Source: Bacteroidota bacterium
GTDB lineage: Bacteria > Bacteroidota > Bacteroidia > Bacteroidales > JAADJA01
Assembly (NCBI GenBank): GCA_024278155.1
Contig: JAJRTT010000035.1
Coordinates: forward strand, 1-32,548
Direction: 5' to 3'
Length of the DNA stretch: 32,548 nt
Position 1 is the stretch's first letter, and every line of letters starts with the position of its first letter. Position numbers and translations under genes: made by a program. Positions 4,041 through 21,631 of the stretch are shown here, in pieces. The notes below the pieces were generated by a model, which was not told where the DNA came from, did no database searches, and worked only from the letters and a program-made list of their open reading frames with translations.

Positions 4041-4077
4041 AATAAAAAAACGGTTAATGTATTTTTCATTAACCGTT
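4041..4077 (-). terminator. Rho-independent terminator closing the minus-strand sulfur-reductase cluster
   Basis: The minus strand reads AACGGTTAATG-aaaaata-CATTAACCGTT, a perfect 11-bp stem, followed directly by a T run (TTTTTTTATT). It lies about 30 nt after the stop of 4107..4748. Confidence 0.85.
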
Positions 4078-4106: not shown

Positions 4107-4748
4107 TTAGCATCCTCCTGATGCAGCTGCTTTTTTCTTCTTCCGGCGGACCTTAACAGGTTTTTTAGTATCTGTGCTTGTGGTTGTTGAGGTTGAAACT
4201 GTACTTCCTGCAACTTTTGCATAATCAAAGTCTGCTGTTCCCTTAAAGTAAGAATCGTCACTTTCAGTATCGGCCAGGTTATCTTTGTGCATTTTGTAAT
4301 AGTCGTATCCACCGGCCAGTACTTTTACGTTATCATAACCAATTTGCCTGAAAAGCATCCATGGTCCATTTGCCTGCAATTGGTTATCGCCATAAAGGAC
4401 AACAGAAACACCTTTATCTTTAAATTCCTTGAGTTGTTTGATTTCTTCTTTTCTGGTGAGGTCATAGGCCGAGATGTTGATCGCCCCCGGTATATGGCCC
4501 CTGCTGTAGGTAAACTTGTCCCTGATGTCGATTAACATGATATTGTCATCGGTTCCGGCCACAAAGCTGGCCAGCTCATATGGATAAAGGCAATTCCCCT
4601 TTTCCGAAATCATCCGTAAAGTTTGCTCAGGAACTTGTTTATAGGTTAACCAAGGGGTTTTCAAAGTTATGAACCCAACCACGATGATGATAAAAAATAT
4701 GGAAAGGGTTATAATTGACTTTTTAGGGTTTAATTCATGTACGTGCAT
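4107..4748 (-). CDS. Membrane-anchored rhodanese-like domain protein lacking the active-site Cys, with a C-terminal ...RRKKKKAAASGGC tail
   Basis: N-terminal hydrophobic anchor SIITLSIFFIIIVVGFITL. Rhodanese fold motifs are IDIRDKFTYSRGHIPGAINI and GYDNVKVLAGGYDYY. The catalytic-loop position reads VVLYGDNQLQA, with no Cys. A Ser/Thr-rich linker precedes the tail. Confidence 0.8.
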   Translation of the reverse strand: MHVHELNPKKSIITLSIFFIIIVVGFITLKTPWLTYKQVPEQTLRMISEKGNCLYPYELASFVAGTDDNIMLIDIRDKFTYSRGHIPGAINISAYDLTRKEEIKQLKEFKDKGVSVVLYGDNQLQANGPWMLFRQIGYDNVKVLAGGYDYYKMHKDNLADTESDDSYFKGTADFDYAKVAGSTVSTSTTTSTDTKKPVKVRRKKKKAAASGGC

Positions 4749-4864
4749 AATGTTTGTTTTTTAATGTTGATCTGAGCGAAATCCCGCCATTGTGGGGCAA
4801 TAAGGTTTTAATGTGATAATGAATGAATTTAGTTGTTTTAAAGAATTAATTATATCATTGTATA

Positions 4865-4900
4865 ATTGAACCATTGAACCATTGAACCATTGAACCATTG
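4865..4900. repeat. Tandem octanucleotide repeat, (ATTGAACC) x4.5 on plus / (CAATGGTT)n on minus
   Basis: Direct reading gives attgaacc attgaacc attgaacc attgaacc attg. It sits in the 157-nt gap between the two rhodanese-like genes and starts 6 nt past the stop of 4906..5523. Confidence 0.95.
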
Positions 4901-4905
4901 TCTCC

Positions 4906-5523
4906 TTAACAACCGCCCGAAGCAGCTGTTTTTTTCTTTTTCCTTTGAATCTTTACCGCTTTTTTGTTGGATGACTTCTCGGATGTTTCTGTTTTGGCAC
5001 CGGTAAAATACATCTGGGCGCCTTTCCTGAAATCATACAAGGCGAACTCTGTTGAAGGAGAGTCAGTTGAAGGTTTTTTGGGTTGGATTATCGTTCTTAT
5101 CCAACAGTTAAGGCCTCCTTTCATGACATATATATTATCGTACCCAAGTCTTTTGGCAAGTACCCATGCCTGATCGGCTTTGATGTCGTCATTTGAGAAA
5201 AACAAAACTTTCATCCCATCTATTCCAAGATAGTCCTGATAGGATTCTTGCAGCAAACTATCGAGAGGGATATTGATGGATTTGGGCAGTGAAAATTTTT
5301 CATAATCTGCTGTAGGCCTTACATCCACCAGTTCGAGGCTTGGGTCGCCCTCAATGATTAACTGGGCCACCTTATCGGTACTCACGTAACGTGTGGGCTG
5401 GATAATCTCCCATAATAGTTCATCCGGGCCTATTTGCTGGTACTTTTGTCGTTCGGGAACGACTAACAATCCACCGGCAAGAACAATCATCAAAGCAGTG
5501 AGGATAATATAATTTTTGTTCAT
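4906..5523 (-). CDS. Membrane-anchored rhodanese-like domain protein lacking the active-site Cys, with a C-terminal ...QRKKKKTAASGGC tail
   Basis: N-terminal anchor YIILTALMIVLAGGLLVV. Rhodanese fold motifs are LVDVRPTADYEKFSLPKSINIP and GYDNIYVMKGGLNCW. The catalytic-loop position reads VLFFSNDDIKA, with no Cys. The protein ends AASGGC. Confidence 0.8.
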   Translation of the reverse strand: MNKNYIILTALMIVLAGGLLVVPERQKYQQIGPDELLWEIIQPTRYVSTDKVAQLIIEGDPSLELVDVRPTADYEKFSLPKSINIPLDSLLQESYQDYLGIDGMKVLFFSNDDIKADQAWVLAKRLGYDNIYVMKGGLNCWIRTIIQPKKPSTDSPSTEFALYDFRKGAQMYFTGAKTETSEKSSNKKAVKIQRKKKKTAASGGC

Positions 5524-5528
5524 GATTC

Positions 5529-6131
5529 TTAGAATTTATAGGGTGTAATGTTTTTTCTAACTCGTTTTTCAATGATCCAGGTTATCCAGAAAGCTGCAAG
5601 GGCGATAACCACAAATGCAAACGCAATCCATTGTGCGGAAATGCCAAGCATATCTGTTATTGTTGGCGAACCCATGTCGCCGCTATAATAAAAATCCTGA
5701 AATAGGGGAAAAGCCTCGGAAAACAAAAAGATTCCAAGGAAAAGCCCACCTGTGAATACAAGGGCATCGAGTTTGCCGATGGCAATGGCCGTATAGCTGG
5801 TGCCCGGGCAAAACCCCCCAATGATGAACCCAAACCCCATTACAACACTTCCTGTTATCATAGGTGTGAGATAGGTTGGCAGAATAAATATTTTGTCCAT
5901 TTCGAGCCAACCGAAGTAATCAAAATAGAGAAGGCCTACCATCGCAACAATTACTGCGGTAAAGAACACCCGGAGCACAACAAAGTTATATCCGTAAAAA
6001 ACTCCGGCAAGGTTTCTTGAAGAAGAAAAGCCTGAAGCTTCCAGCACAAAGCCAAAAGCAATACCGAGAAGCAGGGCTATTACGAAGTCCCAGTTTCCGG
6101 TCAATATGCCATTAGGAATTAAAGGTCCCAT
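5529..6131 (-). CDS. YeeE/YedE-family sulfur-transport membrane protein (half-size, second of pair)
   Basis: Polytopic membrane protein of 200 aa. It has the Gly-rich re-entrant motifs typical of the Sulf_transp family (LEASGFSS, GGFCPGTSY). Confidence 0.75.
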   Translation of the reverse strand: MGPLIPNGILTGNWDFVIALLLGIAFGFVLEASGFSSSRNLAGVFYGYNFVVLRVFFTAVIVAMVGLLYFDYFGWLEMDKIFILPTYLTPMITGSVVMGFGFIIGGFCPGTSYTAIAIGKLDALVFTGGLFLGIFLFSEAFPLFQDFYYSGDMGSPTITDMLGISAQWIAFAFVVIALAAFWITWIIEKRVRKNITPYKF

Positions 6132-6165: not shown

Positions 6166-6699
6166 TTAAATCCAAAGTTTCCTGAAAAAATAAGCAACGG
6201 CATAACCCGTCCCAAATATCCCAAACATAACAATCATCCCACCGAATGAAAATGTGGCGGTTCCGCTCAATGCTGCCCCACTTGTGCAACCTCTTCCAAA
6301 TTGGCTCCCAAACCCAAAAAGGATGCCCCCGACCGCCGCTCCGATCAATCTTGTCTTACTTGTTATTTTTGGTGAGTGCTCGACCCTGAATTTTTTTATC
6401 CTGCCAAATATGGCGCCCGACAATAACCCCCCGATAAATATCCCAATGGATTCAAAAACCAGCCAGTTATACATGGGGGAATGGTCGTCGCTTATGAACT
6501 TGCTATAAAAGGCACTCTCTTCGGCATGGCTCGACGATACCACATCAACCGATGTTACGACTGCACTTTTAACAGCCCCACTGGCACCCAGTCCACGGCC
6601 GGTAATGTAAACTGTTACTATAATAAGTATGCCCAATAACAAACCTCCAAAATAAGGGTTGATGTAATGCGGGTAATTTTTTATTTTATGCTTTTTCAT
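6166..6699 (-). CDS. YeeE/YedE-family sulfur-transport membrane protein (half-size, first of pair)
   Basis: Polytopic membrane protein of 177 aa. Motifs are GRGLGASGA and GRGCTSGAALSG, the latter being the conserved Cys motif of the Sulf_transp family. Confidence 0.75.
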   Translation of the reverse strand: MKKHKIKNYPHYINPYFGGLLLGILIIVTVYITGRGLGASGAVKSAVVTSVDVVSSSHAEESAFYSKFISDDHSPMYNWLVFESIGIFIGGLLSGAIFGRIKKFRVEHSPKITSKTRLIGAAVGGILFGFGSQFGRGCTSGAALSGTATFSFGGMIVMFGIFGTGYAVAYFFRKLWI

Positions 6700-6829: not shown

Positions 6830-7771
6830 TCAATATAAAAATCGTGTTATCTGACCGGCTTCTACCATTACGAACCTGAAAACCAAACCTCCAATAAGGA
6901 TAAAAGTTGAAGGGATCCAGATGGGCACATGATAGCCCCTTAGTTCAAGGATTTCCATTATCGCAGGGAAAATGAGCCCAAGTACTACAACAAATGCCCA
7001 GAAAGTAACCGTGAAATCACCTCCGAGGAATAGTTCTGCCGCTTCGATTTTTGCTGCCGATCCTGCAAGGAACCCCATGAACATATGTGTAATGAGGAAA
7101 AGCTCAACTGTAATCAATATTAAATCAATACGGCCCAAAACTTTTCTTTCGTATTTGCTCTTCGATATCATCATTGTGAAAGCCAGTCCGGTCGAAAGCC
7201 CTGAAACCAAAAACAGAGGCCCTAAAATGGATGTGTTCCACAATGGCCTGGCATTAAAGGCAGATAATAAAATCCCCGTATAAACCCCAAGGATAATGGC
7301 AAGGGCCATGATTGTCCAGGCCATGGTTTTCCTGTATTTGATGGCAAATGCCTCAAACTTGTTCAGGATTTCAAATTTCCAGTCCCACCTGGGGAACATC
7401 TCTTTCATATACGAAGCTACCCATATCACTGAAAGGGGTGTTATGAACATCAATGTCCAGGCACCCCACGACATGGGCGATGTAAACCTTACCGTGGTAT
7501 ATAACCTCCAGAAGTAGAGTTGGTGTTTCAGGTCGAGGAACAAAGCAAATAGTCCAAGGGCCAGGGCAAACGGGGCAAGCAAAGGTGCCCACTTTACGCT
7601 TGCCTGCATATCCTTTTCTTTTTGCATCACAACAAAATACCCCGCAAAAAACAATATTCCGGCAGCAAGGCCGCCCAGGAACAGATACAATGGGATTTGC
7701 CAGTGCCAGATGTGCAGATAAGGATCTATGTTGGGGATATTGCGCCCGCTTACAAATAATTCTTCTTTCAT
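6830..7771 (-). CDS. NrfD/PsrC-type integral membrane anchor subunit of a molybdopterin oxidoreductase
   Basis: The protein is 313 aa with about 8 predicted TM helices. Its position is immediately downstream of the FeS subunit. The N-terminal PYLHIWHWQIPLYLFLGGLAAG motif is typical of the polysulfide reductase NrfD family. Confidence 0.8.
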   Translation of the reverse strand: MKEELFVSGRNIPNIDPYLHIWHWQIPLYLFLGGLAAGILFFAGYFVVMQKEKDMQASVKWAPLLAPFALALGLFALFLDLKHQLYFWRLYTTVRFTSPMSWGAWTLMFITPLSVIWVASYMKEMFPRWDWKFEILNKFEAFAIKYRKTMAWTIMALAIILGVYTGILLSAFNARPLWNTSILGPLFLVSGLSTGLAFTMMISKSKYERKVLGRIDLILITVELFLITHMFMGFLAGSAAKIEAAELFLGGDFTVTFWAFVVVLGLIFPAIMEILELRGYHVPIWIPSTFILIGGLVFRFVMVEAGQITRFLY

Positions 7772-7898: not shown

Positions 7899-8432
7899 TC
7901 AAGTCAGGAAATATAACTGTGGCTTTGTTCCGGCTTCGGGTGCCAATACCTTCCACCTCCTGTTCTTCAGTGCTTTGGAAACATCACTGTTGGGATCGTC
8001 GAGGTCGCCAAAATGCAAACATTTCGTTGGGCAAACTTCCACGCAGGCCGGATTTTGTCCCTTGTCGAGCCTATGTTTGCAGAAAGTGCATTTGTCAACA
8101 TATCCTTCTGGATGGGAATAACGTGCATCATAAGGGCATGATTCAATACAGGCGCCACAGCCGATACATTCATTGTGTGTAACCATAACAATTCCGCCCT
8201 CCACAATATGGCTCGCCCCGGTTGGGCAGCATCTTACGCAAGGGGCATTATCGCAGTGGTTGCAACGTTCCGAGCGCAATTCGATTTCCACGTTCGGATA
8301 ACTCCCGCTCACATTTTCAACGATCCAGTCCCTGCAATATCCGTGAGGGACATTGTTTTCTGTTTGGCAGGCAACCACACAGTCACCACAGCCTACACAT
8401 TTTTTTGTGTCAATAGCCATTGCATATCTCAT
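7899..8432 (-). CDS. 4Fe-4S ferredoxin-type electron-transfer subunit (PsrB/PhsB/NrfC-like)
   Basis: It has four Cys clusters: CVGCGDCVVAC, CNHCDNAPCVRCCP, CIGCGACIESCP and CTFCKHRLDKGQNPACVEVCP. Its ATG overlaps the upstream gene stop (ATGA at 8429-8432). Confidence 0.9.
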   Translation of the reverse strand: MRYAMAIDTKKCVGCGDCVVACQTENNVPHGYCRDWIVENVSGSYPNVEIELRSERCNHCDNAPCVRCCPTGASHIVEGGIVMVTHNECIGCGACIESCPYDARYSHPEGYVDKCTFCKHRLDKGQNPACVEVCPTKCLHFGDLDDPNSDVSKALKNRRWKVLAPEAGTKPQLYFLT

Positions 8433-8881
8433 GACTCAACCTCCTCTTTTTTAGGGTTCCCTAATAAAAATGTAACAAAATTCCCTCTCATCCCGGTTCC
8501 ACCCATCACAGGGTCGGTCATAACATGTGTCACCAGTTCCGAATCGCTTGCGCCCTTTCCATAGGAACGCGACAATCGCTTTTCTTTGTGGCCAAAACCA
8601 TGGACCATGTAAACCGAATCCCAACGGATACGTTCGGTAACGCGAACTTTAATCGGGAAGGAGGAAACAACATCATCCTGGTTTTTCAGCCAAACCTTTT
8701 GGCCATTTTCGATTCCCCATATTTCAGCAACCCTTGGATTGACCCATAATTTGTTCTCGTCCATTAAATCATCGAGGTTGGGGTTATTTGTCGTACGACT
8801 GAATGTATGCATGGGTGCGCGGCCATAATTCAACCGGTAAAATCCTTCAGGGGGCTCTGGATGTGAAGTGTAATTGGGCAA
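8429..8881 (-). CDS. C-terminal fragment (molybdopterin-dinucleotide-binding domain) of the molybdopterin oxidoreductase catalytic subunit; same frame as 8990..10690
   Basis: The listed start is only the first TTG after an in-frame stop. Coding-like sequence (..NTGKIELYSTELDYEGFDP) continues upstream of it. The domain sequence includes VWLKNQDDVVSSFPIKVRVTERIRWDSVYMVHGFGH. Confidence 0.8.
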   Translation of the reverse strand: MPNYTSHPEPPEGFYRLNYGRAPMHTFSRTTNNPNLDDLMDENKLWVNPRVAEIWGIENGQKVWLKNQDDVVSSFPIKVRVTERIRWDSVYMVHGFGHKEKRLSRSYGKGASDSELVTHVMTDPVMGGTGMRGNFVTFLLGNPKKEEVES

Positions 8882-8989
8882 AGGATCAAAACCTTCATAA
8901 TCAAGTTCGGTAGAGTAAAGCTCTATCTTTCCCGTATTGGTGTTGAATTCAAAATCTTCAAGGTTTTGCAGGAAATAAAGATCGTCATA

Positions 8990-10690
8990 TTACCTGTCAA
9001 ACTTCTTCACCCCAATGCGTTTCATTTCTTCAAGGGATGAACCCACGTGTTTCAATTGCCAGTCCAATACTTCCTCAATCGAATCACATTTAAAATATTC
9101 ATCCAATCCCAAACGGCTTCCCAATTGCTTGGCTATCCACCAATTGGGTTTGGAGTCATATTTCGGTTTGGCCGCTGGCATCCGAAGTGCTAAAAACGGT
9201 TCACGATGGGGCGAAGTCCTTACAAAATCATAACGTTCCAGATAGGTACATTCGGGAAGGACCACATCGGCATAGGCCGTAATGTCCATGGGCATGGTAT
9301 CGATAACGACCAGGAATTCCAGGTTGTCGATTGCTTCGAGTGTTTTATTTTGGTCGGGCAATGAAGCGAGCAGGTTGGTCCCATAAACAATCCAAGCCCT
9401 CAATTGGTAATCCATGTCCGGGTTTGGGATGGTTGCATCGCAAATCCCTGTTGACAGCACTTCGTGAACAAGATTGTATTTTCCCGGAGGATAAGCATCT
9501 TTCCAAGTTCGGGATGGTTTGGGGTAAGGCGGTGAAGGGTATTTTGGGAGATGGACTTTTTCAGGAACATAAAATCCGCCCCTTCTTCCCCAGGAACCCA
9601 ATAATGCATTGAGAATGGCAATTGCCCTCGACCGTTGGGTGTCGTCGCCGTACCAGGTAACATGCCTTCCGGGGTGTACGATAACAGCAGGGGAGGCATA
9701 GGCCATCTCGCGTGCCGTTCTCCTTATTATCTCAGGTTCGATGGTGGTAATCCCAAAGGCCCATTCAGGGGTTTTGTCTTTTACATGTTCTTTGAGTTCA
9801 TCAAAACCAAATGCGTATTTCTTGATATATTCTTTGTCGTATAATTCTTCTTCGATAAGAACATGTGTCCAGGCAAGAAGTAAAGCAAGGTCGGTTGCGG
9901 GTTTTATGGGCAGCCAATATTTTGAGTGGGAAGCGGCCGTTGAAAACCTGGGATCAACGGTAATGATTGTTGCCCCATTATCAATGGCATCCGACATTTC
10001 CTGTATTTGGCCGTTGTGCATGTTTTCGCCAATGTGCGAGCCGATAAGTACCAGGCATTTGGTGTCCCTTATATCGGTTCTTTCCGGTGATTGGACATCT
10101 TCACCGTAAGTTGCCGTAAATGCAACTTCGCGAGGGCCGCGGCATTGTGCAAAAGACGGTGCGGAAATATTTGGGGAACCAAAGGCTTTTACTAAATGCC
10201 CCATGAGTTTGCCCCCGGTACCGTGTGAAAACAGGGCAACGCATTCGGGGCCATGCTCCTTTTTGATCTTCGACATTTTACTTGCGATCAGGTCAAGGGC
10301 TTCTTCCCAGCTTGCCTCCCGGTAGTATTGTGTGCCATTTTCTTTGGTTTCCCTTATCAATGGTGTTTTCAAACGGTCTTCATCGTGGTACATGCCTATT
10401 CCGCCCGTTCCCCTTGGGCATAACCTGCCGTTGCAGTGCGGGTCTTCTTTATTGCCAATGATTTTCCTTATCTCCCCTTTTTTGTCAACATAGGTCCAGG
10501 CCGCACATTTCCAGAAGCAAACCTCGCAAAAGGTTGGGTAAGGTGTCATGTCTTCGTCACTTACCGCTTCGTTTTTTTCGGCTGCATAGGCTGCATTTAT
10601 CCCGTTGAAGTTCAGCGAACTTAAACCTAATGCGATGGCTCCTGTACCGAGTGTCGAGATTTTTATAAACTGTCTGCGATTTGTTTTCAT
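8990..10690 (-). CDS. N-terminal 566 aa of a Tat-exported molybdopterin (Mo/W-bisPGD) oxidoreductase catalytic subunit, Psr/Phs-like; ends at a premature in-frame stop
   Basis: Twin-arginine signal MKTNRRQFIKISTLGTGAIALG. The N-terminal FeS motif is CEVCFWKCAAWTY...HCNGRLCPRG. The candidate Mo-ligand region is SFAQCRGPREVA. Total length across both fragments is about 750 aa, as expected for PsrA/PhsA-type enzymes. Confidence 0.85.
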   Translation of the reverse strand: MKTNRRQFIKISTLGTGAIALGLSSLNFNGINAAYAAEKNEAVSDEDMTPYPTFCEVCFWKCAAWTYVDKKGEIRKIIGNKEDPHCNGRLCPRGTGGIGMYHDEDRLKTPLIRETKENGTQYYREASWEEALDLIASKMSKIKKEHGPECVALFSHGTGGKLMGHLVKAFGSPNISAPSFAQCRGPREVAFTATYGEDVQSPERTDIRDTKCLVLIGSHIGENMHNGQIQEMSDAIDNGATIITVDPRFSTAASHSKYWLPIKPATDLALLLAWTHVLIEEELYDKEYIKKYAFGFDELKEHVKDKTPEWAFGITTIEPEIIRRTAREMAYASPAVIVHPGRHVTWYGDDTQRSRAIAILNALLGSWGRRGGFYVPEKVHLPKYPSPPYPKPSRTWKDAYPPGKYNLVHEVLSTGICDATIPNPDMDYQLRAWIVYGTNLLASLPDQNKTLEAIDNLEFLVVIDTMPMDITAYADVVLPECTYLERYDFVRTSPHREPFLALRMPAAKPKYDSKPNWWIAKQLGSRLGLDEYFKCDSIEEVLDWQLKHVGSSLEEMKRIGVKKFDR

Positions 10691-11197
10691 TCCGACTTCA
10701 TTTAAATATGTAATAAGCTACATAAGTGTATTTGTTGATGCAAAAATAGTTACAATTATGATAAATGTCATATGTCCATGTCTTGAGTGTGTATTTTGTA
10801 AAACACTGGTACACAAAACTATAAATATTGGCTTCATATATCTTTGAGAATGTAATGGACTGGTAGTTTGGAGATTACATTTCTTATTTAGAAGAAGTAT
10901 AAATTTCGCTTAAGCGCATATTTATAAGTAATTCTAAATTGCGGAAAACCTTTTGGGCCGAAGTTGGCATTATGCGGAAGCACTCCAGAAGGTTAACATT
11001 GTGAAGGAGTGGGGAATCACCCAGCTAACACAGCAGTCGTATTTTTTGTCTTCAGGCCTTTCATTGTTTGGGGATTTCTCCCTTGCACGCCATGGCCTGC
11101 GCATTGGGTTGAAATGACAACGAAGACGAGGGTAGCTCCCAATGAGTTTCAGGGTCTTCAGGCCATGTGAAATTGGATTTGTTAGGGGCAAAAAAAG

Positions 11198-12022
11198 TTA
11201 TTGTTTTATCCCGGTAGTGACTTTGCCCGTTTTGGTATCAAGTTCGGAACCGCCCATGGAATGGGGGATCATATACATCGAAAGCAGGACAATGGCGGCA
11301 ATGATTGGCCACAATCTGTTTTTCCTTTTTTTCCACAAAACCAGAATGGCAAACGTCCAAAACAGAAATGCGAAGATTGTTTTGTTGTCGGTCCAATCGC
11401 CACCAAAAGGCCAACCGGTCCAGTAATCGCCAAAAGCATATTTCTGGACAATAGGGCCAAGGATCAGTCCACCGATAAGTAAACAGATCGTGGTGACTTT
11501 TGCATAGCTAAAAGTCCGATGCCCTTTACCTATAGCTTCGATTCCGGTGCGCATAGAGTAAAGCATGGCCAGAAACATGAAGATTACATGGGGAATAAGG
11601 ATATACAAAGGAACGCCGCCTTTAAACCGGATCACGACCGGATCCTCCCTTAAAATTATTTCCCGGTCGCTGGAAACCACGGTAACTATATATTCAAGTT
11701 TTCCGGCGGGAGGTTGGTGAGGGAGGTTCGCAGACAAATAATCCCCATCATGCACCATGTTTATTTTCTCCCATTCATCCTGCGTTCGGTACTTCCTATA
11801 AGAGATAAACCCATTGATATTTTCAGGGACTTCAATTTTAACCCTTGCATCCTTTTTGCCTCCCCAACTTGTGATCAATTTGTAGGAGTAGCTTATCCCA
11901 TTAATTTCGATCTCTCCCTTTGTTGGATAAGTGGGCCCTGTGGTTTTCTGATAAACAGCAATCCCAACCGTAAATACAATGGCGAAGACCCATAAATATG
12001 TTGATTGTGTTTTTGAGATCAT
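11198..12022 (-). CDS. Conserved-looking 5-TM membrane protein with a periplasmic beta-rich domain and a Trp-rich loop (function unknown; WWD-like motif)
   Basis: The internal ATG at 12022 (MISKTQSTYLWVFAIVF...) forms an ATGA overlap with the stop of the upstream ORF. The listed 12196 start would add a non-membrane-like extension. TM helices flank the loop YAFGDYWTGWPFGGDWTDNKT. Confidence 0.65.
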   Translation of the reverse strand: MISKTQSTYLWVFAIVFTVGIAVYQKTTGPTYPTKGEIEINGISYSYKLITSWGGKKDARVKIEVPENINGFISYRKYRTQDEWEKINMVHDGDYLSANLPHQPPAGKLEYIVTVVSSDREIILREDPVVIRFKGGVPLYILIPHVIFMFLAMLYSMRTGIEAIGKGHRTFSYAKVTTICLLIGGLILGPIVQKYAFGDYWTGWPFGGDWTDNKTIFAFLFWTFAILVLWKKRKNRLWPIIAAIVLLSMYMIPHSMGGSELDTKTGKVTTGIKQ

Positions 12023-12384
12023 CCTGAATTGTTTACTGATTTTAAAGCTGCAAAAGTAGGGATTTTGTAAAAACCTTTGGTGTCGAAGTTGAACAGTGTG
12101 CTGGGGAATAGGCCCACGAGTAGTAAGAAAGGTTGAAATACAATTGACTTTTTCTTCTTTGCCAACAGGCATAAACTGTAGGGTGCCCGGATCCATCGCC
12201 GATACAATCTGTGAGTATTCATGATCTCCTCAATTTCCTTTTCTGTCAAATATATGAGGTAATGTTCTATTTCTTTCCTTTCCGGTACCAAGAAATCAAG
12301 TTTGCCAAAAAAGTTACTATTTAATTTATTTTGCATTTCCACCATGAAAGGCTTGATTTCATAATATTGTTCGTAAGCTCCCAA
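12019..12384 (-). CDS. Hypothetical protein, possibly truncated or frameshifted; start uncertain (TTG 12384 or ATG 12345)
   Basis: The ORF stop overlaps the ATG of the downstream gene (ATGA). I recognise no family motif. A second frame immediately upstream (MATFKPHLATFMDGGDFDTWELT...) looks coding but is out of frame. Confidence 0.35.
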   Translation of the reverse strand: MGAYEQYYEIKPFMVEMQNKLNSNFFGKLDFLVPERKEIEHYLIYLTEKEIEEIMNTHRLYRRWIRAPYSLCLLAKKKKSIVFQPFLLLVGLFPSTLFNFDTKGFYKIPTFAALKSVNNSG

Positions 12385-12562
12385 GTGTCGAAATCACCGC
12401 CATCCATAAAAGTAGCCAGGTGTGGCTTGAAGGTGGCCATGCTTTCAAAAACAGTATTGGTGAATTTTGCATTTGCTGGTTGAATCTGCCATAATTAAAA
12501 GCCTAACTAAGATTTTTTATTATGGTGTTGTTCAGGGTTTTTTCATAAAACCGGCATTTTTG

Positions 12563-12637
12563 TGGGATATAGTGGATTCGAACCACTGACCCCCGCCCTG
12601 TCAAGGCGGTGCTCTGAACCAACTGAGCTAATATCCC
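12563..12637 (-). tRNA. tRNA-Val (anticodon GAC)
   Basis: The reverse complement folds as a cloverleaf. The acceptor is GGGATAT/ATATCCC and the D arm is GCTC..GAGC. The anticodon stem-loop is CCGCC-TTGACAG-GGCGG. The T arm is AGTGG-TTCGAAT-CCACT. Confidence 0.93.
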
Positions 12638-12699
12638 CTGGCAATTTGCTGCAAAAATAGAAAATCATTTCAAATTCACAATCATTTACTTTGTTTTTA

Positions 12700-12707
12700 T
12701 ACTTTTG
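12700..12707 (+). promoter_or_regulatory. Bacteroidota-type -7 promoter box (TACTTTTG = TAnnTTTG) upstream of the dipeptidyl-peptidase gene
   Basis: It is an exact match to TAnnTTTG, 78 nt before the ATG at 12785. I found no good -33 TTTG at the standard spacing. Confidence 0.4.
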
Positions 12708-12784
12708 TCAAAAGTACGTGCTTTTGAATTAGATCCATTCCAGGACTTGGTTTGGGCATTTCCAAATAAACAAAATCTGGTATT

Positions 12785-14977
12785 ATGAAAAGAATTTCCA
12801 TCCTTATCCTTGTTTTTACCCTGTTTCAGGTTGTCGTACTGGGACAATCCGCGAAAAAGGAATTCACGCTTCAAAGTGTATTTCAATCACCCCGGTTTTA
12901 TCCGAAAGGGGTTTATGGCATCGTCCCGTTGAATGATGGGGAAAGTTATTGTGCCCTGGAATCGGACAGCATAATTATTTATGATTATAAGAGCGGGGAA
13001 AAAACAGGGATTATTGTGACCAAAGCTCAATTAATCCCAAATGGCGATACGGTTCCGATTTCGATGAGGGGTTTTCAATTGAGCAAAGATGAATCAAAAA
13101 TATTGTTTTCCACAAAAACAGAGCAGATATACCGGCATTCCACAAAGGCTGAATTTTATATTTATGACAGGGAAAATGAAGAATTGACCCTTTTGTCGAA
13201 TAGCGGGAAACAGCGCCTGGCCGATTTTTCGCCGGATGCTTCAAAGGTTGCATTTGTTCGCGGCAATAATATTTTCATCAAGGACTTGGTCACTGGATAT
13301 GAAGTGCCTGTGACGAAAGATGGGAGAACCAACAATCTTATCTATGGCACGACCGATTGGGTTTATGAAGAGGAGTTTGGGTTTACAAAAGCCTTTTTTT
13401 GGTCACCGGATGGAAATAAGATTGCATTTTACCGTTTTGATGAAAGCAATGTGAAAGAGTATCAACTGACCCATTGGGGCGATTTGTACCCTGAGTACCA
13501 TAAATACAAATACCCCAAGGCTGGCGAAGACAATTCCATTGTCAGTATCCATGTTTATGATCTTGAAACTGGTGAAACAAATACGATGGATACCGGATTG
13601 GAAACCGATATTTATATTCCGAGGATCAAATGGACGAATGACCCTACTAAACTGTCTATTCAATGGATGAACCGTTTGCAAAATGAATTGAAGATATTGG
13701 TAGCCGATGTAAATGAGGGGAAAACCAAACCTATCTATATAGAAACAAACAAGTATTATATTGATATTACCGATAACCTGAGCTTTCTGGAAGATAACGG
13801 GCGGTTTGTTTTTACAAACGAATCAGATGGGTACCACCATATATATATGTATGGCATGGATGGTAGTTTGATTACACAAATTACCCGGGGGAAATGGGAT
13901 GTGACAAGCATATATGGGATAGACGAAGACAGGGAGGTGATTTATTATGGCTCAAGTGAATCGTCACCTCTTAACAGGGACTTCTATCAAATTGGTTTTG
14001 ATGGGAAAGGGAAGAAGTTGCTTTCGGAAAAAGAAGGTGACAACAGAATCCAGTTTAGCAAGAAATTCAATTATTACATAAGTACTTATTCGGATGCCAC
14101 TACCCCTCCAATTATTACTGTCAATTCTTCAAAAGGCAAAGAGTTAAGGGTATTAAAGGATAATTCAGGCTTAATCGATACGTTGAACAATTATACCTAT
14201 AGCAATCGTGAGTTCTTTTCGTTCACAACAACGGGAGGGGTGAATTTGAATGGGTGGATGATCAAGCCTTTCGATTTTGACCCTTCCAAAAAGTATCCTG
14301 TTCTAATGTATGTATATGGCGGCCCCGGGTCCCAAACCGTGCGGAACAACTGGGGAAGCGGGGATTTGTGGTATCAGATGCTTTCGTCAAAAGGGATAAT
14401 CATTGTTTCGGTGGATAACCGGGGAACGGGTGCCCGTGGGGAAGAGTTCAAAAAAACAACCTATCTAGAACTTGGCAAATATGAAACCGAAGATCAGATA
14501 GAGGTTGCCAAATACCTTGCCTCGCTCGATTATGTCGATAAAGACCGGATCGGAATCTGGGGATGGAGCTACGGTGGCTTCATGTCCACTTCATGCCTCA
14601 CCAAGGGAGCCGATTATTTTTGCATGGGGGTAGCTGTGGCCCCGGTCACGAATTGGCGTTATTACGATAACATTTATACCGAAAGGTTTATGAGGACACC
14701 ACAGGAAAACCCTGAGGGATATGACGAAAATTCACCCATTAACCATGTAGAAAACCTCAAAGGGAAATTCCTTTTGATTCATGGAACTGCCGACGATAAT
14801 GTGCACATCCAGAATTCGATGGATCTGATCACTGCGCTGGTTGCGGCCAATAAGCAATTCGATATGCAGTTTTATCCCAATAGCAACCATGGGATTTATA
14901 CAGGGAAAAATACCCGCATTCATTTATATACAAGGATCACGGATTTTATTTACGATAATTTATTATTAAAAGAATAA
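12785..14977 (+). CDS. Dipeptidyl-peptidase IV (S9B prolyl oligopeptidase family), secreted
   Basis: Signal peptide MKRISILILVFTLFQVVVLGQ. An N-terminal beta-propeller region (DPPIV_N-like) is followed by a C-terminal alpha/beta hydrolase. That hydrolase carries the nucleophile elbow GIWGWSYGG, plus HGTADDNVH and NSNHGI for the Asp and His. Confidence 0.92.
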   Translation: MKRISILILVFTLFQVVVLGQSAKKEFTLQSVFQSPRFYPKGVYGIVPLNDGESYCALESDSIIIYDYKSGEKTGIIVTKAQLIPNGDTVPISMRGFQLSKDESKILFSTKTEQIYRHSTKAEFYIYDRENEELTLLSNSGKQRLADFSPDASKVAFVRGNNIFIKDLVTGYEVPVTKDGRTNNLIYGTTDWVYEEEFGFTKAFFWSPDGNKIAFYRFDESNVKEYQLTHWGDLYPEYHKYKYPKAGEDNSIVSIHVYDLETGETNTMDTGLETDIYIPRIKWTNDPTKLSIQWMNRLQNELKILVADVNEGKTKPIYIETNKYYIDITDNLSFLEDNGRFVFTNESDGYHHIYMYGMDGSLITQITRGKWDVTSIYGIDEDREVIYYGSSESSPLNRDFYQIGFDGKGKKLLSEKEGDNRIQFSKKFNYYISTYSDATTPPIITVNSSKGKELRVLKDNSGLIDTLNNYTYSNREFFSFTTTGGVNLNGWMIKPFDFDPSKKYPVLMYVYGGPGSQTVRNNWGSGDLWYQMLSSKGIIIVSVDNRGTGARGEEFKKTTYLELGKYETEDQIEVAKYLASLDYVDKDRIGIWGWSYGGFMSTSCLTKGADYFCMGVAVAPVTNWRYYDNIYTERFMRTPQENPEGYDENSPINHVENLKGKFLLIHGTADDNVHIQNSMDLITALVAANKQFDMQFYPNSNHGIYTGKNTRIHLYTRITDFIYDNLLLKE

Positions 14978-14978
14978 A

Positions 14979-15009
14979 TTTGCTTTTATAATTAAAATTT
15001 ATACTTTTG
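14979..15009 (+). promoter_or_regulatory. Bacteroidota sigma-A promoter: -33 TTTG (14979-14982) and -7 TACTTTTG (15002-15009), 19-nt spacer
   Basis: It matches the TTTG-N19-21-TAnnTTTG consensus. It lies 44 nt upstream of the rpsU ATG. Confidence 0.55.
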
Positions 15010-15052
15010 CACCCCGATTTTGAAATATTCATTATAATTAAATAACGGAAAA

Positions 15053-15250
15053 ATGATAATAGTACCTGTTAAAGAAGGCGAAAGCATCGAGAGGGCTTTG
15101 AAAAAGTATAAAAGGAAGTTTGAAAAAACCGGAGTTATAAAAGAGTTGCGTGAAAGGCAAAAGTTCACAAAACCTTCTATAAAGAACAGAGAGCAGAGAT
15201 TAAAAGCCATATACGTACAAGGTCTTAGGGATAAGGAAGAAGGCTTGTAG
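15053..15250 (+). CDS. rpsU: 30S ribosomal protein S21
   Basis: MIIVPVKEGESIERALKKYKRKFEKTGVIKELRERQKFTKPSIKNREQ... has typical S21 sequence and length (65 aa). Confidence 0.93.
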   Translation: MIIVPVKEGESIERALKKYKRKFEKTGVIKELRERQKFTKPSIKNREQRLKAIYVQGLRDKEEGL

Positions 15251-17130: not shown

Positions 17131-18318
17131 ATGGCAAAAGAAAAATTTGATCGTTCCAAACCGCACGTTAATATTGGTACAATTGGTCACGTTGACCACG
17201 GTAAAACCACATTGACCGCTGCTATTACATTAAACCTCCAGGATTCAGGCCTTGCAACATTCAAGTCCTTTGACGAAATTGATAATGCCCCTGAAGAAAA
17301 GGAAAGAGGTATTACAATTAACACAGCTCACGTTGAGTACGAAACTGCCAATAGGCATTATGCACACGTTGACTGTCCCGGTCACGCTGACTATGTGAAG
17401 AATATGGTAACAGGTGCTGCCCAGATGGACGGTGCCATTCTTGTGGTTGCCGCAACTGATGGACCTATGCCCCAAACCAGGGAACATATCCTTCTTGCTC
17501 GTCAGGTAGGTGTGCCTAAAATCGTTGTTTTCATGAACAAGGTTGACATGGTTGACGATGAAGAACTCCTTGAGCTCGTTGACATGGAAATCAGGGAATT
17601 GTTGAGTTTCTACGAATTTGATGGTGACAATACCCCTATAATTCAAGGTTCTGCTCTTGGTGCACTTAACCAGGAAGCAAAATGGATTCCTCAAATCCAT
17701 GAACTGATGGAAGCTTGTGATACTTGGATTCCTTTACCTGAGCGCGACGTTGATAAACCTTTCCTTATGCCTGTTGAGGATGTATTCTCAATTACGGGTC
17801 GTGGAACAGTTGCAACAGGGAGGATTGAATCCGGTGTAATCAAAGTTGGTGAAGCAGTTGATATTATCGGATTGGGTGCAGAAAAACTCAAATCGGTTTG
17901 TACGGGAGTTGAGATGTTCCGTAAAATACTTGATAGGGGAGAAGCCGGTGACAACGCAGGGTTGTTGTTAAGGGTAATTGATAAGAACGAAATTACAAGG
18001 GGAATGGTAATCGCACATCCTGGTTCAATTACTCCCCATACCCATTTTAAAGCTGAGGTTTATATCCTGAAGAAAGAAGAAGGTGGAAGGCATACCCCGT
18101 TCCATAACAACTATCGTCCGCAGTTCTATTTCAGGACAACGGACGTTACCGGGGAGATTATTTTACCAGAAGGTGTAGAAATGATCATGCCTGGTGATAA
18201 CCTTACAATTGAAGTGAAATTGATCACTGAAATTGCAATGGCTAAAAACCTGAGGTTTGCTATTCGTGAAGGTGGCCGTACAGTTGGTGCTGGTCAGGTA
18301 ACCGAAATCATAGAGTAG
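17131..18318 (+). CDS. tuf: Translation elongation factor Tu
   Basis: [45 protein letters not shown] and NKVD are the G1, G3 and G4 motifs. The length is 395 aa. Confidence 0.98.
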
Positions 18319-18346
18319 CAATAGCCTGTTTGATATAAAATTTGAT

Positions 18347-18379
18347 AAAGGTATCCCGTAAGAATTTCGGGATGCCTTT
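18347..18379 (+). terminator. 12-bp hairpin after tuf (terminator, attenuator or processing signal before tRNA-Trp)
   Basis: AAAGGTATCCCG-taagaattt-CGGGATGCCTTT, with one G-U pair. It is followed by ATATG, so there is no strong T-run. Confidence 0.4.
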
Positions 18380-18411
18380 ATATGCAAATTGCGAATATTT
18401 ATCAATTACGA

Positions 18412-18484
18412 ACGGGTGTAGCTCAGCTGGTAGAGCTCTGGTCTCCAAAACCAGGAGTCGTGGGTTCGAATCCTACCACCCGTG
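18412..18484 (+). tRNA. tRNA-Trp (anticodon CCA)
   Basis: The acceptor is ACGGGTG/CACCCGT. The anticodon stem-loop is CTGGT-CTCCAAA-ACCAG. The T loop is TTCGAAT. Confidence 0.93.
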
Positions 18485-18499
18485 CAAAAGTTTAATACA

Positions 18500-18697
18500 A
18501 TGGCAAAATTCAGTATATCAGGTTACGCAAAAGAAAGTTATGACGAACTTGTTCATAAAGTATCGTGGCCCACATGGAGCGAGCTCCAGAACAGCGCAAT
18601 CGTAGTTTCGGTGGCTTCCCTTATTATTGCCTTTGTGGTTTATTTAATGGATTTTTCTTTTCAGAGCCTAATGAAATTATTTTATAATAATTTTTAG
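18500..18697 (+). CDS. secE: Preprotein translocase subunit SecE
   Basis: The ATG at 18500 gives MAKFSISGYAKESYDELVHKVSWPTWSELQNSAIVVSVASLIIAFVVYLMD, with a single C-terminal TM. Its position between tRNA-Trp and nusG is canonical. The listed 18482 start is a GTG inside the tRNA. Confidence 0.88.
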   Translation: MAKFSISGYAKESYDELVHKVSWPTWSELQNSAIVVSVASLIIAFVVYLMDFSFQSLMKLFYNNF

Positions 18698-18759
18698 TAT
18701 CGCATTCCTGATTGTAGATAAACCAAATTGTGCATTTAAAGATAATCATTACCTAAGAA

Positions 18760-19302
18760 ATGAGCGAACAAGTTAAAAAGTGGTATGTTGTAAGGGCCAT
18801 TAGCGGAAGCGAGAAAAAGGCAAAGCAATATCTTGATAGCGAGATTAAGCGATTGAAATTGGAAGATTTCATTTCGAAGGTGCTCATTCCTTATGAGAAA
18901 GTATATCAGGTAAGGAACGGGAAAAAAATCAGTAAAGAGAGAAACCTGTACCCCGGTTATATCCTTATTGAAGCTGCATTGGTCGGCGAAATCCCCCACA
19001 TTATCAAAAGTATCCCCAATGTAATCGGGTTTATAGGGACAAGGGGGGAACCCAATGCTTTGCGGATGTCAGAGGTGAACCGTATCCTTGGTAAAGTAGA
19101 TGAACTTGCAGAACAGGGCGAAGAGGTGAACATACCATTTATTATTGGAGAGTCGGTTAAGGTTATCGATGGGCCATTTAATAGCTTCAGTGGTGTGATC
19201 GAGGAAATCAACGAAGAGAAGAAAAAACTGAAAGTGATGGTAAAGATCTTCGGAAGGAAAACACCACTCGAACTTGGTTTTATGCAAGTCGAAAAAGAAT
19301 AA
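18760..19302 (+). CDS. nusG: Transcription termination/antitermination factor NusG
   Basis: The NGN domain reads KKWYVVRAISGSEKKAKQYL. The C-terminal KOW region reads GESVKVIDGPFNSFSGVIEEINEEKKKLKVMVKIFGRKTPLEL. Confidence 0.95.
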   Translation: MSEQVKKWYVVRAISGSEKKAKQYLDSEIKRLKLEDFISKVLIPYEKVYQVRNGKKISKERNLYPGYILIEAALVGEIPHIIKSIPNVIGFIGTRGEPNALRMSEVNRILGKVDELAEQGEEVNIPFIIGESVKVIDGPFNSFSGVIEEINEEKKKLKVMVKIFGRKTPLELGFMQVEKE

Positions 19303-19384
19303 AATTGAATATTGAGCTGTTACACAATATAAATTCAAGCTGTTACGCAAAACAATTATTTATTTAAAGTTTAGATTTTAAAAG

Positions 19385-19828
19385 ATGGCTAAAGAAGTAA
19401 GTGGATTAATCAAATTACAAATCAGGGGAGGCGCTGCAAATCCTTCACCACCAGTTGGGCCTGCATTGGGTGCAAAAGGTGTTAATATAATGGAATTTTG
19501 CAAGCAGTTTAATGCGCGTACACAGGATAAAGCCGGCAAAGTACTTCCGGTGATTATCAGTGTTTACAAAGACAAATCCTTTGATTTCATCATCAAAACC
19601 CCGCCGGTTGCGGTTCAGTTACTTGATGCGGCAAAGCTTAAAAAGGGCTCTCCTGAATCCAATAGGTTAAAGGTGGCCACTGTTAGCTGGGATCAAATAC
19701 AATCAATTGCCGAAGGGAAAATGGTTGACATGAATGCCTTTACGGTAGAGTCCGCGATGCACATGGTTGCAGGAACTGCCAGAAGTATGGGCATAAAGGT
19801 TAAAGGCGCTTTTCCGGTAAGTAATTAA
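19385..19828 (+). CDS. rplK: 50S ribosomal protein L11
   Basis: [43 protein letters not shown] is the canonical L11 N-terminus. Confidence 0.97.
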
Positions 19829-19914
19829 AATTGCAATTTCACGGATTTGCATCATTTAATCGTGATTGTGATTTGTGGGGAAATATAACTAGAGTTAATT
19901 AATAAAAAGGTAAA

Positions 19915-20610
19915 ATGGCCAAATTAACTAAGAATAAGAAAGAAGTTTTAGCTAAATTCGATAAAGAAGGGATATATCCTATTACCGATGCTGCTGGTAT
20001 TGTCAAAAAAATCACATATACCAAATTTGATGCATCTATCGATATGGATATTCGATTGGGCGTTGACCCCCGAAAAGCCAATCAAATGGTGCGGGGAACA
20101 GTTGCCCTTCCTCATGGTACAGGTAAATCAATAAGAGTACTTGTGCTGTGCAGTCCTGATAAAGAAGAAGAAGCTAAAGAAGCAGGAGCTGATTATGTTG
20201 GACTTGATGAATACGTCCAGAAAATAAAAGGTGGATGGACTGATATTGATATAGTTATTACAATGCCAAGTGTTATGTCAAAAGTAGGTGCATTGGGAAG
20301 GATATTAGGCCCCAGGGGACTGATGCCCAATCCTAAGAGCGGTACAGTGACCATGGACATTGGCAAAGCAGTAAAAGCAGTAAAAGCAGGTAAAATTGAT
20401 TTCAAGGTTGATAAAACAGGGATCATTCATGCAGCTATCGGTAAAGTATCTTTTAACGAAGATATGATCATTGATAATGCAAGAGAACTTATTAATACAA
20501 TTATGAAGTTAAAACCTTCTGCTGCAAAAGGTACCTATGTAAAAAGTATTTATTTGTCAAGTACAATGAGTCCTGGTATTCAAATCGATCCTAAATCAGT
20601 TACTTTATAG
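19915..20610 (+). CDS. rplA: 50S ribosomal protein L1
   Basis: [34 protein letters not shown] is the canonical L1 motif. The length is 231 aa. Confidence 0.97.
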
Positions 20611-20642
20611 TATTAACAGATTAAAGGTAAAAGACTTTCATA

Positions 20643-21167
20643 ATGAAAAAAAGTGAAAAAAATCAACTTATAGATATCATTGCCGAACAACTAAATCAGA
20701 ACAGCAATATTTATGTGGCAGATATTTCAAACCTGGATGCAGAAAATACAAGCAACCTGAGAAGGCTTTGTTTTAAAAACGATATCAAGTTGACCGTTGT
20801 CAAGAACACATTGCTCAAAAGAGCGATGGAAAAATCAGGGAAGAACCTCGATGATCTATATGAAATCCTTCAAGGCCCTACTTCCCTTATGTTTTCCGAG
20901 GCAGGAAATGCTCCTGCAAAACTCATAAAGGAGTTCAGGAAAAAGACGAAGGACAGGCCCTTGTTAAAAGGTGCTTATGTGGAAGAATCAACTTATCTGG
21001 GTGACGACCAACTGGAAACACTTGTAAACATCAAATCGAAAAACGAACTGATCGGCGACGTGATTGCATTGTTGCAATCCCCGGCCAAAAATGTCATTTC
21101 GGCATTACAATCAGGTGGTCAAAGTCTTACCGGAATTCTTAAAACCTTATCGGAAAAAGAAGGATAG
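20643..21167 (+). CDS. rplJ: 50S ribosomal protein L10
   Basis: The call rests on its position between rplA and rplL, its 174 aa length, and the L10-like sequence LRRLCFKNDIKLTVVKNTLLKRA. Confidence 0.92.
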   Translation: MKKSEKNQLIDIIAEQLNQNSNIYVADISNLDAENTSNLRRLCFKNDIKLTVVKNTLLKRAMEKSGKNLDDLYEILQGPTSLMFSEAGNAPAKLIKEFRKKTKDRPLLKGAYVEESTYLGDDQLETLVNIKSKNELIGDVIALLQSPAKNVISALQSGGQSLTGILKTLSEKEG

Positions 21168-21232
21168 GGCAATTTAGATTATTTCAACTAGTAAAAAAAC
21201 AATTTGTATAACATTAATAAAACGAATATAAA

Positions 21233-21610
21233 ATGGCAGACTTAAAAGCATTTGCAGAACAATTAGTTAATTTGACTGTTAAAGAAGTAAACGAATTAGC
21301 TGAAATCTTAAAAGACGAATATGGAATCGAACCTGCAGCAGCAGCTGTTGCAATTGCAGGACCGGCAGCAGGCGGCGAAGGCGCGGTAGCCGAAGAACAA
21401 ACCGAATTTGATGTAGTCCTTACAGCAGCGGGCCAATCAAAACTGGCCGTTGTGAAACTGGTTAAAGAACTTACCAGCCTTGGTCTCAAAGAAGCCAAGG
21501 AATTGGTTGACTCAGCACCTAAAGCTATCAAAGAAGGTGTAACAAAAGATGAAGCAGACGCATTACAAAAGCAATTGGAAGAAGCAGGAGCAGAGGTTGA
21601 GGTTAAATAA
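21233..21610 (+). CDS. rplL: 50S ribosomal protein L7/L12
   Basis: An Ala/Gly-rich hinge ([17 protein letters not shown]) is followed by the C-terminal domain [28 protein letters not shown]...[11 protein letters not shown]. Confidence 0.97.
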
Positions 21611-21631
21611 GGATTTTAGATTGTGCTGCTG

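Follow-up and report, generated by a model that had tools for sequence, protein, structure and literature searches.

The window, meaning the whole 32,548-nt stretch of DNA analyzed here (positions 1 to 32,548 of contig JAJRTT010000035.1, assembly GCA_024278155.1, from a Bacteroidota bacterium), carries a seven-gene sulfur-reductase cluster on its minus strand. The last two genes of this cluster encode the paralogous rhodanese-like proteins RhdB and RhdA. The rhdB gene (4906..5523), which starts 5 nt past the stop codon of yeeE2, encodes 205 residues ending in ...QRKKKKTAASGGC, and rhdA (4107..4748) encodes 213 residues ending in ...RRKKKKAAASGGC. A first-pass annotation, made from the sequence alone, had described two such paralogs, and both open reading frames were found at the coordinates given there. 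Their products match Pfam Rhodanese (PF00581; E 1.3e-18 for RhdA and 2.9e-14 for RhdB) and were modeled by AlphaFold2 with pLDDT values of 77 and 80, respectively. Each protein consists of an N-terminal hydrophobic helix, a rhodanese domain that lacks the catalytic Cys, and a flexible tail in which Cys is the last residue. The conservation of this tail, and the possibility that its Cys carries sulfur, are the subject of this report.

Rhodanese domains without the loop cysteine

AlphaFold2 models built from family alignments revealed the same layout in both proteins, with an N-terminal helix, a confidently predicted rhodanese core (pLDDT 80-95), and a low-confidence tail. The helix spans residues 8-27 of RhdA (4668..4727, minus strand; mean Kyte-Doolittle hydropathy 2.86 over ~19 residues) and residues 3-20 of RhdB (5464..5517, minus strand; supported by the model and by hydropathy), in agreement with the hydrophobic anchor that had been proposed for each. 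The PF00581 scores of RhdA and RhdB, 67.8 and 53.8 bits, lie well above the gathering score of 22.2, and the top Foldseek matches were all rhodaneses. No NCBIfam model was matched at its cut-off by either protein.

Active rhodaneses and sulfurtransferases, such as Sud, GlpE, and PspE, carry a Cys at the start of the loop that follows the central β-strand. The first-pass annotation had reported this Cys to be missing, and the alignments agree. Gly120 of RhdA (codon ggc, 4389..4391, minus strand) was placed at the catalytic position by sequence and by alignment to the Protein Data Bank (PDB), in which it stands opposite the Gly of the Cys-less Alr3790 domain. Residue-level alignment of RhdB to the yeast proteins RDL1 (3d1p) and RDL2 (6k6r) placed Ser110 (codon tca, 5194..5196, minus strand) opposite the catalytic Cys of FYCASGKRG. 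Across 126 family representatives, taken from clusters at 50% identity, the loop Cys is missing in 124; the catalytic column holds Ser in 57, Gly in 54, Ala in 8, Asp in 3, His in 2, and Cys in 2. The loops that have lost the Cys are themselves conserved, at ~60-100% per position, and read YGD[DN]QLQANGPW in the A (RhdA) type and SNDDIKADQAW in the B (RhdB) type.

The extreme N-terminus of RhdA, ahead of the membrane helix, has a signature of its own. The peptide MHVHELNP (residues 1-8, 4725-4748) contains four residues, H2, H4, N7, and P8, that are invariant in the RhdA family (MHxHExNP), and distant A-like members have MKELNRTxRL in its place. This peptide is presumably a short cytoplasmic segment, and its His-x-His could bind a metal or a partner.

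The cysteine-terminated tail

Searches of a protein collection clustered at 90% identity yielded 401 homologs of RhdA and 584 of RhdB, and the tails of the best 120 of each were read. All 120 RhdA-type and all 120 RhdB-type proteins end in GGC-COOH, much more often than chance could explain, and many of them contain no other Cys. More remote relatives were collected with a profile of both types, which gave 220 clusters at 50% identity (E <1e-30). Among the best 150 clusters, 127 representatives are short, and their terminus is GGC in 97, GGC followed by a single extra residue in 12, and (E)nGC in 18. A terminal Cys is absent from all remaining representatives, most of which are visibly truncated. 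The rhodanese domains of the A and B types are only 23-28% identical to each other; R202, G211, G212, and C213 (RhdA numbering) are invariant across both, and K204 and K205 nearly so. The tail is the best-conserved part of RhdA and RhdB.

This degree of conservation bears on the simplest alternative, namely that the rhodanese domains are regulatory or structural, like other Cys-less rhodanese homology domains, and that the terminal Cys is incidental. Rhodanese domains without activity often serve as interaction modules, and the best PDB sequence match of RhdA is indeed the Cys-less rhodanese domain of Alr3790. An incidental Cys is contradicted by its invariance in the 240 close homologs listed and by its retention in ~200 diverged clusters, whose domains fall to ~25% identity, and we give this explanation almost no credence.

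The tail module occupies residues R201-C213 of RhdA (4110..4148, minus strand) and R193-C205 of RhdB (4909..4947, minus strand). It follows the consensus R-[KR]-K-K-x5-G-G-C-COOH in a fixed register, with a basic block at positions -11 to -8, a spacer of five small residues, and the final G-G-C. The near-identity and flexibility previously ascribed to the two tails were both borne out, the latter by pLDDT values below 50 over residues 181-213 of RhdA and 177-205 of RhdB. The tail appears to be a functional unit separate from the domain that bears it, because it is invariant despite the divergence of the domains, keeps its register, is predicted to be disordered, and recurs on active rhodaneses (see below).

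In a subset that includes both A-like and B-like members (P0299, P0306, P0364, P0365, P0370, and P0382), the spacer is poly-Glu, so that the local charge is inverted without loss of the terminal Cys. Docking of the basic tail onto an acidic dead loop or domain within the same protein was considered and found to be unsupported, as the loop charge (-1.2) and the domain charge are equal in basic-tail and poly-Glu members.

The C-terminal ends, ...VRRKKKKAAASGGC in RhdA and ...IQRKKKKTAASGGC in RhdB, are each followed directly by a TAA stop codon. Selenocysteine or read-through at the tail was rejected, since both genes read Cys-TAA and other loci have a mixture of TAA, TAG, and TGA after the Cys codon. 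The terminal Cys is thus not an artefact of selenocysteine read-through, because both stops are TAA.

The tails of the two paralogs were found to vary together. Over the last 12 residues, RhdA and RhdB are more alike within a genome (identity 0.857) than between genomes (0.652), and the observed value was not reached in any of 2000 permutations. The residue at position -4, which is A, S, or E, is shared by both paralogs in 70 of 77 genomes (31.6 expected; 0/2000 permutations), and in 100 of 107 operons. On a neighbor-joining tree of the NrfD and Fe-S subunits, this position changed at least 10 times in RhdA and at least 14 times in RhdB. Recent gene conversion is an unlikely source of the identity, as the same codon is used at only 39% of the identical tail residues, and synonymous differences are visible in the window itself. 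Because the tails co-vary within genomes and recent gene conversion is unlikely, the simplest reading of these comparisons is that both would fit one shared partner site. Co-variation of the tails with columns of PsrA, the Fe-S subunit, NrfD, YeeE1, and YeeE2 gave high mutual information in every protein, which stems from shared phylogeny.

Tailed relatives, operon, and cellular location

The same ending was found on several other rhodaneses. One family consists of exported two-domain rhodaneses of ~300 aa that retain the catalytic Cys (CNTGVIAS), carry a Sec signal, and finish in ...KKxKxSSSDGGC. The GGC end is present in 85 of 86 long forms, and 33 short forms (~282 aa) stop 18 residues earlier. 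In 10 loci a tailed two-domain rhodanese is encoded upstream of psrA (for example L038, 1500-2405), beside a Porin_O_P gene and a Crp/Fnr-type regulator. Lipoprotein rhodaneses that combine a catalytic Cys with a GGC end were found in L104, L065, and L132, where they adjoin genes for an octahaem cytochrome c (PF11783) and a cytochrome b. In a Draconibacterium locus (L049), the YeeE2 half is fused through one extra transmembrane helix to a Cys-less rhodanese that has Ser at the catalytic position and ends in ...KKASGGCS. Since the same ending occurs on active two-domain, lipoprotein, and YeeE2-fused rhodaneses, the tail appears to go with periplasmic sulfur-reductase neighborhoods, whether the rhodanese is active or not.

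The Draconibacterium fusion lies in a second gene set just downstream of rhdA (11169-15223, OY781971.1), which comprises genes for an octahaem cytochrome c (PF11783), a cytochrome b561-like membrane protein, a YeeE1-like protein, and the fusion of YeeE2, transmembrane helix, and rhodanese. Similar sets, in which a tailed lipoprotein rhodanese accompanies an octahaem cytochrome and a cytochrome b, are present in L104, L113, and L132.

The company that the tail keeps is relevant to a further alternative, in which the tail would be a sorting, anchoring, or modification signal, with the Cys lipidated, metal-loaded, or covalently attached and the polybasic block merely pinning the C-terminus to the membrane. 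A polybasic block near a terminal Cys does resemble membrane-targeting motifs, the tail is unstructured in AlphaFold2, and the protein would then be pinned at both ends. C-terminal Cys lipidation of this kind is not known in bacteria. The operon is made up of the psrABC-type genes, yeeE1, yeeE2, rhdB, and rhdA alone, with no conserved gene for a modifying enzyme; the poly-Glu variants keep the terminal GC and lose the adjacent basic character; and the tail is confined to rhodanese scaffolds in sulfur-reductase neighborhoods. We regard a signal of this type as quite improbable.

The operon itself begins with psrA (8429..10690, minus strand), which encodes a molybdopterin catalytic subunit (PF00384, PF04879, and PF01568) with an N-terminal Tat signal (RRQFIK). 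It is followed on the same strand by psrB (7899..8432), for a four-cluster Fe-S subunit (PF13247, with NrfC, TtrB, and DsrO-like NCBIfam matches), and by psrC (6830..7771), for an NrfD-type quinol-oxidizing membrane subunit (PF03916, E 2e-47). A Tat-exported molybdopterin subunit, a four-cluster Fe-S subunit, and an NrfD-type subunit together place this enzyme among polysulfide reductases of the PsrABC type, although its substrate may be polysulfide, thiosulfate, or another compound. The intact PsrA of a related locus (L001, 98% identical) aligns over its full length with PsrA of Thermus thermophilus (2vpw, E 8.6e-201). In the window, psrA is interrupted by an in-frame TAA at 8990-8992, where L001 reads Glu (KKFDR-E-YDDLY). 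A sense codon stands at this site in all of the 70-plus other loci, and the stop, either one nonsense mutation or an error of sequencing, is unique to the window. Recoding was rejected as its explanation, as L001 has Glu and the other loci have sense codons at this position.

Downstream of psrC lie two half-size genes of the YeeE/YedE family, yeeE1 (6166..6699, minus strand), which corresponds to the C-terminal half (PF04143 profile positions 177-308), and yeeE2 (5529..6131, minus strand), which corresponds to the N-terminal half (profile positions 4-159) and has an H7-like fifth helix. Two half-size PF04143 proteins, each with a conserved pore-loop Cys, are what defines the split form of this family. 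The single invariant Cys is found in GRGCTSG in YeeE1 and in GGFCPG in YeeE2.

These pore cysteines bear on an alternative in which the terminal Cys of the tail would be a redox or resolving thiol. Such a thiol would attack persulfides or polysulfides on YeeE, or substrate bound to PsrA, and release sulfide, or would gate the channel by a reversible disulfide, for example with the YeeE1 Cys. YeeE1 and YeeE2 each keep exactly one invariant pore-loop Cys, which a flexible thiol could reach, and the YeeE homolog of solved structure has an essential Cys near the periplasm (PMC7449682). The co-variation of the tails would suit any shared partner site and is compatible with this scheme. However, many members have a single Cys, with no second one nearby to form a redox pair, and the same tail is found on exported rhodaneses that possess their own sulfur-transferring Cys, for which a relay is more natural than a gate. 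Redox or gating chemistry is for these reasons judged unlikely, though less so than a sorting or anchoring signal.

Selenium might be handled instead of, or besides, sulfur. The tail Cys would then shuttle it, as a selenotrisulfide or perselenide, between a Psr-like reductase of selenite or polyselenide and a selenium channel of the YedE type. NCBIfam models of the YedE selenium transporter are matched by YeeE2 (E 5.6e-05) and YeeE1 (E 3.8e-05), RhdA matches the rhodanese ExtH, which belongs to an operon for selenite/tellurite reduction, and both paralogs match the N-terminal transmembrane-plus-rhodanese part of the selenoprotein TsoB. All of these matches are weak and fall far under the curated cut-offs, and the full-length match of PsrA is the polysulfide reductase of T. 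thermophilus. No selenoprotein or selenium-utilization genes were seen in the window or in the loci inspected. The tail genes end in TAA in the window, and ordinary stops follow the Cys codon across the loci. A selenium carrier is accordingly very doubtful.

The distribution of the operon was established by a genome scan, limited to one genome per species, that found relatives of RhdA in 264 genomes, of which the best 80 loci were examined. All 80 are labeled as Bacteroidota or as Bacteroidota-related metagenome-assembled genomes. The carriers include Prolixibacteraceae (with the cultured Draconibacterium, Maribellus, and Mangrovibacterium), Lentimicrobiaceae, and Ca. Sulfidibacterium. The order psrA, Fe-S subunit gene, nrfD, yeeE1, yeeE2, rhdB, rhdA is identical in ~75 of the 80 loci, and no locus whose contig is long enough departs from it. 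Metagenomes were scanned with 10 sequences from a subgroup that is only ~30% identical to RhdA, which returned the same seven-gene operon in every long contig recovered, and the order is kept in ~110 operons from genomes and metagenomes together. The co-occurrence of the tailed paralogs with YeeE/YedE and NrfD-type genes, raised by the first-pass annotation as a point to check, is borne out in these operons. The family is large, with no fewer than 264 species representatives and, at 50% identity, ~200 sequence clusters. No match to the SoxZ family was found by Pfam among the eight operon proteins scanned, with an operon composition that is constant across loci, and neither Pfam nor gene order across loci revealed a TusA-like gene in the operon.

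We infer that RhdA and RhdB expose both the rhodanese domain and the tail to the periplasm, because tailed paralogs have Sec or lipoprotein signals, PsrA is Tat-exported, and charge distributions in the Draconibacterium fusion and in the wider family point the same way. The linker between the last YeeE2 helix and the rhodanese anchor helix of the fusion (RVRNKQMKFSRTTLNR) is strongly basic and should therefore be cytoplasmic, which would put the rhodanese outside. This fits the crystal structure of YeeE, in which the C-terminus is inside, on the cytoplasmic side (PMC7449682). In the wider family, the net charges of the N- and C-terminal flanks of the helix are +1.95 and +0.51 in A-like members and +1.71 and -0.15 in B-like members, as expected for an N-in, C-out orientation. 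An arrangement with RhdA on one face of the channel and RhdB on the other was considered and dropped, given the N-in bias of both types in the wider family and the export signals on tailed paralogs.

Several other features of the window flank or interrupt the operon. The spacer between rhdB and rhdA contains a perfect tandem octamer, ATTGAACC, repeated 4.5 times (4865-4900; GGTTCAAT on the coding strand). A terminator-like hairpin (4049..4077, minus strand), with an 11-bp stem followed by a T run, lies ~30 nt past the rhdA stop and is likely the end of the operon. Farther downstream, and also on the minus strand, are genes for two paralogous outer-membrane β-barrel proteins (PF13505; 2996-3838 and 2152-2916) that have unusual Arg/Gly-rich C-termini, ...GGGRMPMRRRR and ...GGRFSLIKRR. 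The same pair is found downstream of rhdA, in the same orientation, in 13 of 158 loci, some of them distant operons, and could give the substrate a path through the outer membrane. Upstream of psrA lies a gene for a 332-aa predicted membrane protein (11198-12196, minus strand) that lacks both a Pfam match and relatives in the other loci. The region from 17131 to 29910 was assigned to tuf, nusG, rplKAJL, rpoB, and rpoC by the sizes and order of the open reading frames only; if so, the sulfur operon sits in an ordinary chromosomal neighborhood of a Bacteroidota-type genome.

Proposed role and relation to known systems

The interpretation that we favor, by a modest degree, is that the terminal Cys serves as a tethered sulfane-sulfur carrier for PsrA, for YeeE1/YeeE2, or for both, as judged from sequence, predicted structure, and gene context. 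It is preferred because the tail Cys is conserved while the loop Cys is lost, the partner genes are fixed, the tails co-vary, YeeE2 is fused to a tailed rhodanese, and the tail recurs on active exported rhodaneses. According to this proposal, RhdA and RhdB would be held on the cytoplasmic membrane by a single N-terminal helix and would face the periplasm, each presenting a rhodanese-fold domain without catalytic Cys, followed by a ~30-residue disordered linker that ends in the fixed-register module. The terminal Cys would be the working thiol, loaded with sulfane sulfur as a persulfide or polysulfide, or possibly a thiosulfonate. The sulfur might come from polysulfide, from thiosulfate by way of the active tailed rhodaneses, or from the YeeE pore Cys. 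The flexible arm would then swing its cargo between the periplasmic active site of PsrA, for reduction, and/or the periplasmic mouth of YeeE1/YeeE2, for transport, with the tails of both paralogs docking at one partner site. Cationic residues in the active sites of rhodaneses attract anionic sulfur species, and the basic block of the tail may act in the same manner, may lower the pKa of the thiol, or may hold the arm on the membrane surface. The first-pass annotation had likewise made the tail Cys a functional thiol that works with YeeE and/or Psr. That part has gained strong comparative support from the invariance of the Cys, the operon, the YeeE2 fusion, the active tailed rhodaneses, and the co-variation. 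The persulfide or thiosulfonate chemistry, like the suggestion that the rhodanese fold is a docking scaffold, is retained here as a supposition.

A number of observations weigh against the carrier proposal or leave its details ambiguous. Psr and YeeE always co-occur, so gene data cannot tell which of them is the partner of the tail. The best charge-complementary column of PsrA, in which Lys accompanies Glu-type tails, rests on ~3 evolutionary events. The charge pattern of the tail is not universal, since poly-Glu replaces the small-residue spacer in some members (...EEEEEEGC), and no correlation was found between the charge of the tail and that of the domain or its dead loop. No docked tail conformation appears in the AlphaFold2 models, and the flank charge bias is ambiguous when the close RhdA and RhdB families are taken alone. 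The premature stop in psrA means that the copy in the window may be a sequencing error or a recently inactivated operon. Finally, YeeE reportedly has a positively charged periplasmic cavity (PMC7449682), so that direct insertion of a cationic tail is not obviously favorable; the basic block may rest on the anionic head groups of lipids instead.

A more specific version of the carrier proposal, which we hold only tentatively, describes the tail as a portable dipstick. It would thread its thiol into the periplasmic funnel of YeeE1/YeeE2 and/or PsrA, sulfur would be passed between proteins at the membrane interface and never be free, and the Cys-less domains would be adaptors that hold or load the arm. 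If this were true, RhdA and RhdB would be the periplasmic equivalent of YeeD and would add a third type of sulfur-carrier arm to those of SoxY and DsrC, and psrABC-yeeE1E2-rhdBA would define a conserved unit of sulfur respiration and import in sediment Bacteroidota.

For the tethered carrier in general, the interest lies in the hand-over of sulfur to an enzyme or channel, a step that is poorly understood in polysulfide and thiosulfate respiration and in zero-valent-sulfur transport. The suggested solution is unlike those of Sud and SoxY, in that the reactive Cys would no longer sit in the rhodanese pocket and would instead occupy the tip of a flexible, tethered arm. The split YeeE channel is tied to the rhodanese family by a gene fusion and to a respiratory reductase by genetic linkage, which provides a hypothesis for roles of YeeE beyond sulfur assimilation. 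Proteins of this family are currently annotated as rhodanese-like or, misleadingly, as active sulfurtransferases; calling them dead rhodaneses and calling them active SseA-type enzymes would both be wrong. The cultured carriers, Draconibacterium, Maribellus, and Mangrovibacterium, make the family directly testable.

Among known systems, the channel half of the operon is closest to the split forms PmpAB and YedE1E2, with which YeeE1 and YeeE2 share their half size and a single conserved Cys each. The Cys residues of PmpA and PmpB correspond to the two essential pore cysteines of full-length YeeE (PMC11582611, PMC7449682), and split YedE1E2 transports zero-valent sulfur (PMC10812762). YeeE1 (177 aa) and YeeE2 (200 aa) differ from these proteins (~130 aa) in length, in the extra H7-like helix of YeeE2, and in their position within a psr operon, alongside two tailed rhodanese-like partners.

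YeeD (TsuB), a small Cys protein encoded beside the YeeE/TsuA thiosulfate channel, is needed for channel function (PMC11073785, PMC11582611). The analogy with YeeD and TusA drawn in the first-pass annotation fails on topology: YeeD works at the cytoplasmic side of YeeE, whereas the rhodanese domains and tails would lie in the periplasm. The folds differ as well: YeeD is a cytoplasmic protein of the TusA fold, and RhdA and RhdB, which are rhodanese-fold proteins, showed no match to PF01206 at E values up to 0.01 and have no CPxP motif. The RhdA match Alr3790 of Anabaena (3hix) has the same Gly at the catalytic position, but neither a membrane anchor nor a Cys-terminated tail was seen in the matched chains. 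Flexible C-terminal arms that bring a reactive Cys into the buried active site of a partner are familiar from DsrC/TusE and from the Cys tails of MerA and thioredoxin reductase. These proteins are cytoplasmic, their folds are unrelated to that of RhdA and RhdB, and their chemistry is different.

SoxY, the carrier subunit of the oxidative Sox pathway for thiosulfate, is a protein of Ig-like fold that carries a Tat signal, depends on SoxZ as its obligate partner, and has a GGCGG motif in which GG follows the Cys. The likeness suggested earlier holds only as a functional analogy, in that SoxY is a periplasmic carrier whose C-terminal arm, flexible and rich in Gly, bears sulfur adducts on a Cys; the two differ in fold, signal, and motif. 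Rhodanese is the only Pfam match of RhdA and RhdB, they have a signal-anchor helix and no twin-arginine motif, they end in GGC-COOH with the Cys last and a basic block before it, and their context is that of a reductive Psr system. Sud of Wolinella succinogenes, as Klimmek reportedly described in 1999, is a periplasmic rhodanese whose single Cys hands polysulfide sulfur to Psr. The rhodanese fold is shared, and the periplasmic location, the service to PsrABC, and the use of one Cys would be as well; the linkage of rhdA and rhdB to the psrABC-type genes is strict. The Cys of Sud, however, lies in the active-site loop of a soluble homodimer without anchor, tail, or YeeE partner, whereas the loop of RhdA and RhdB has Gly or Ser and their only conserved Cys is C-terminal. 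No description of a Cys-less rhodanese with a terminal-Cys arm was found in the open-access literature searched. By analogy, RhdA and RhdB would be closest in function to Sud and SoxY while lying outside both families, and what appears to be new is a sulfur-carrier arm on a new scaffold, in a new operon.

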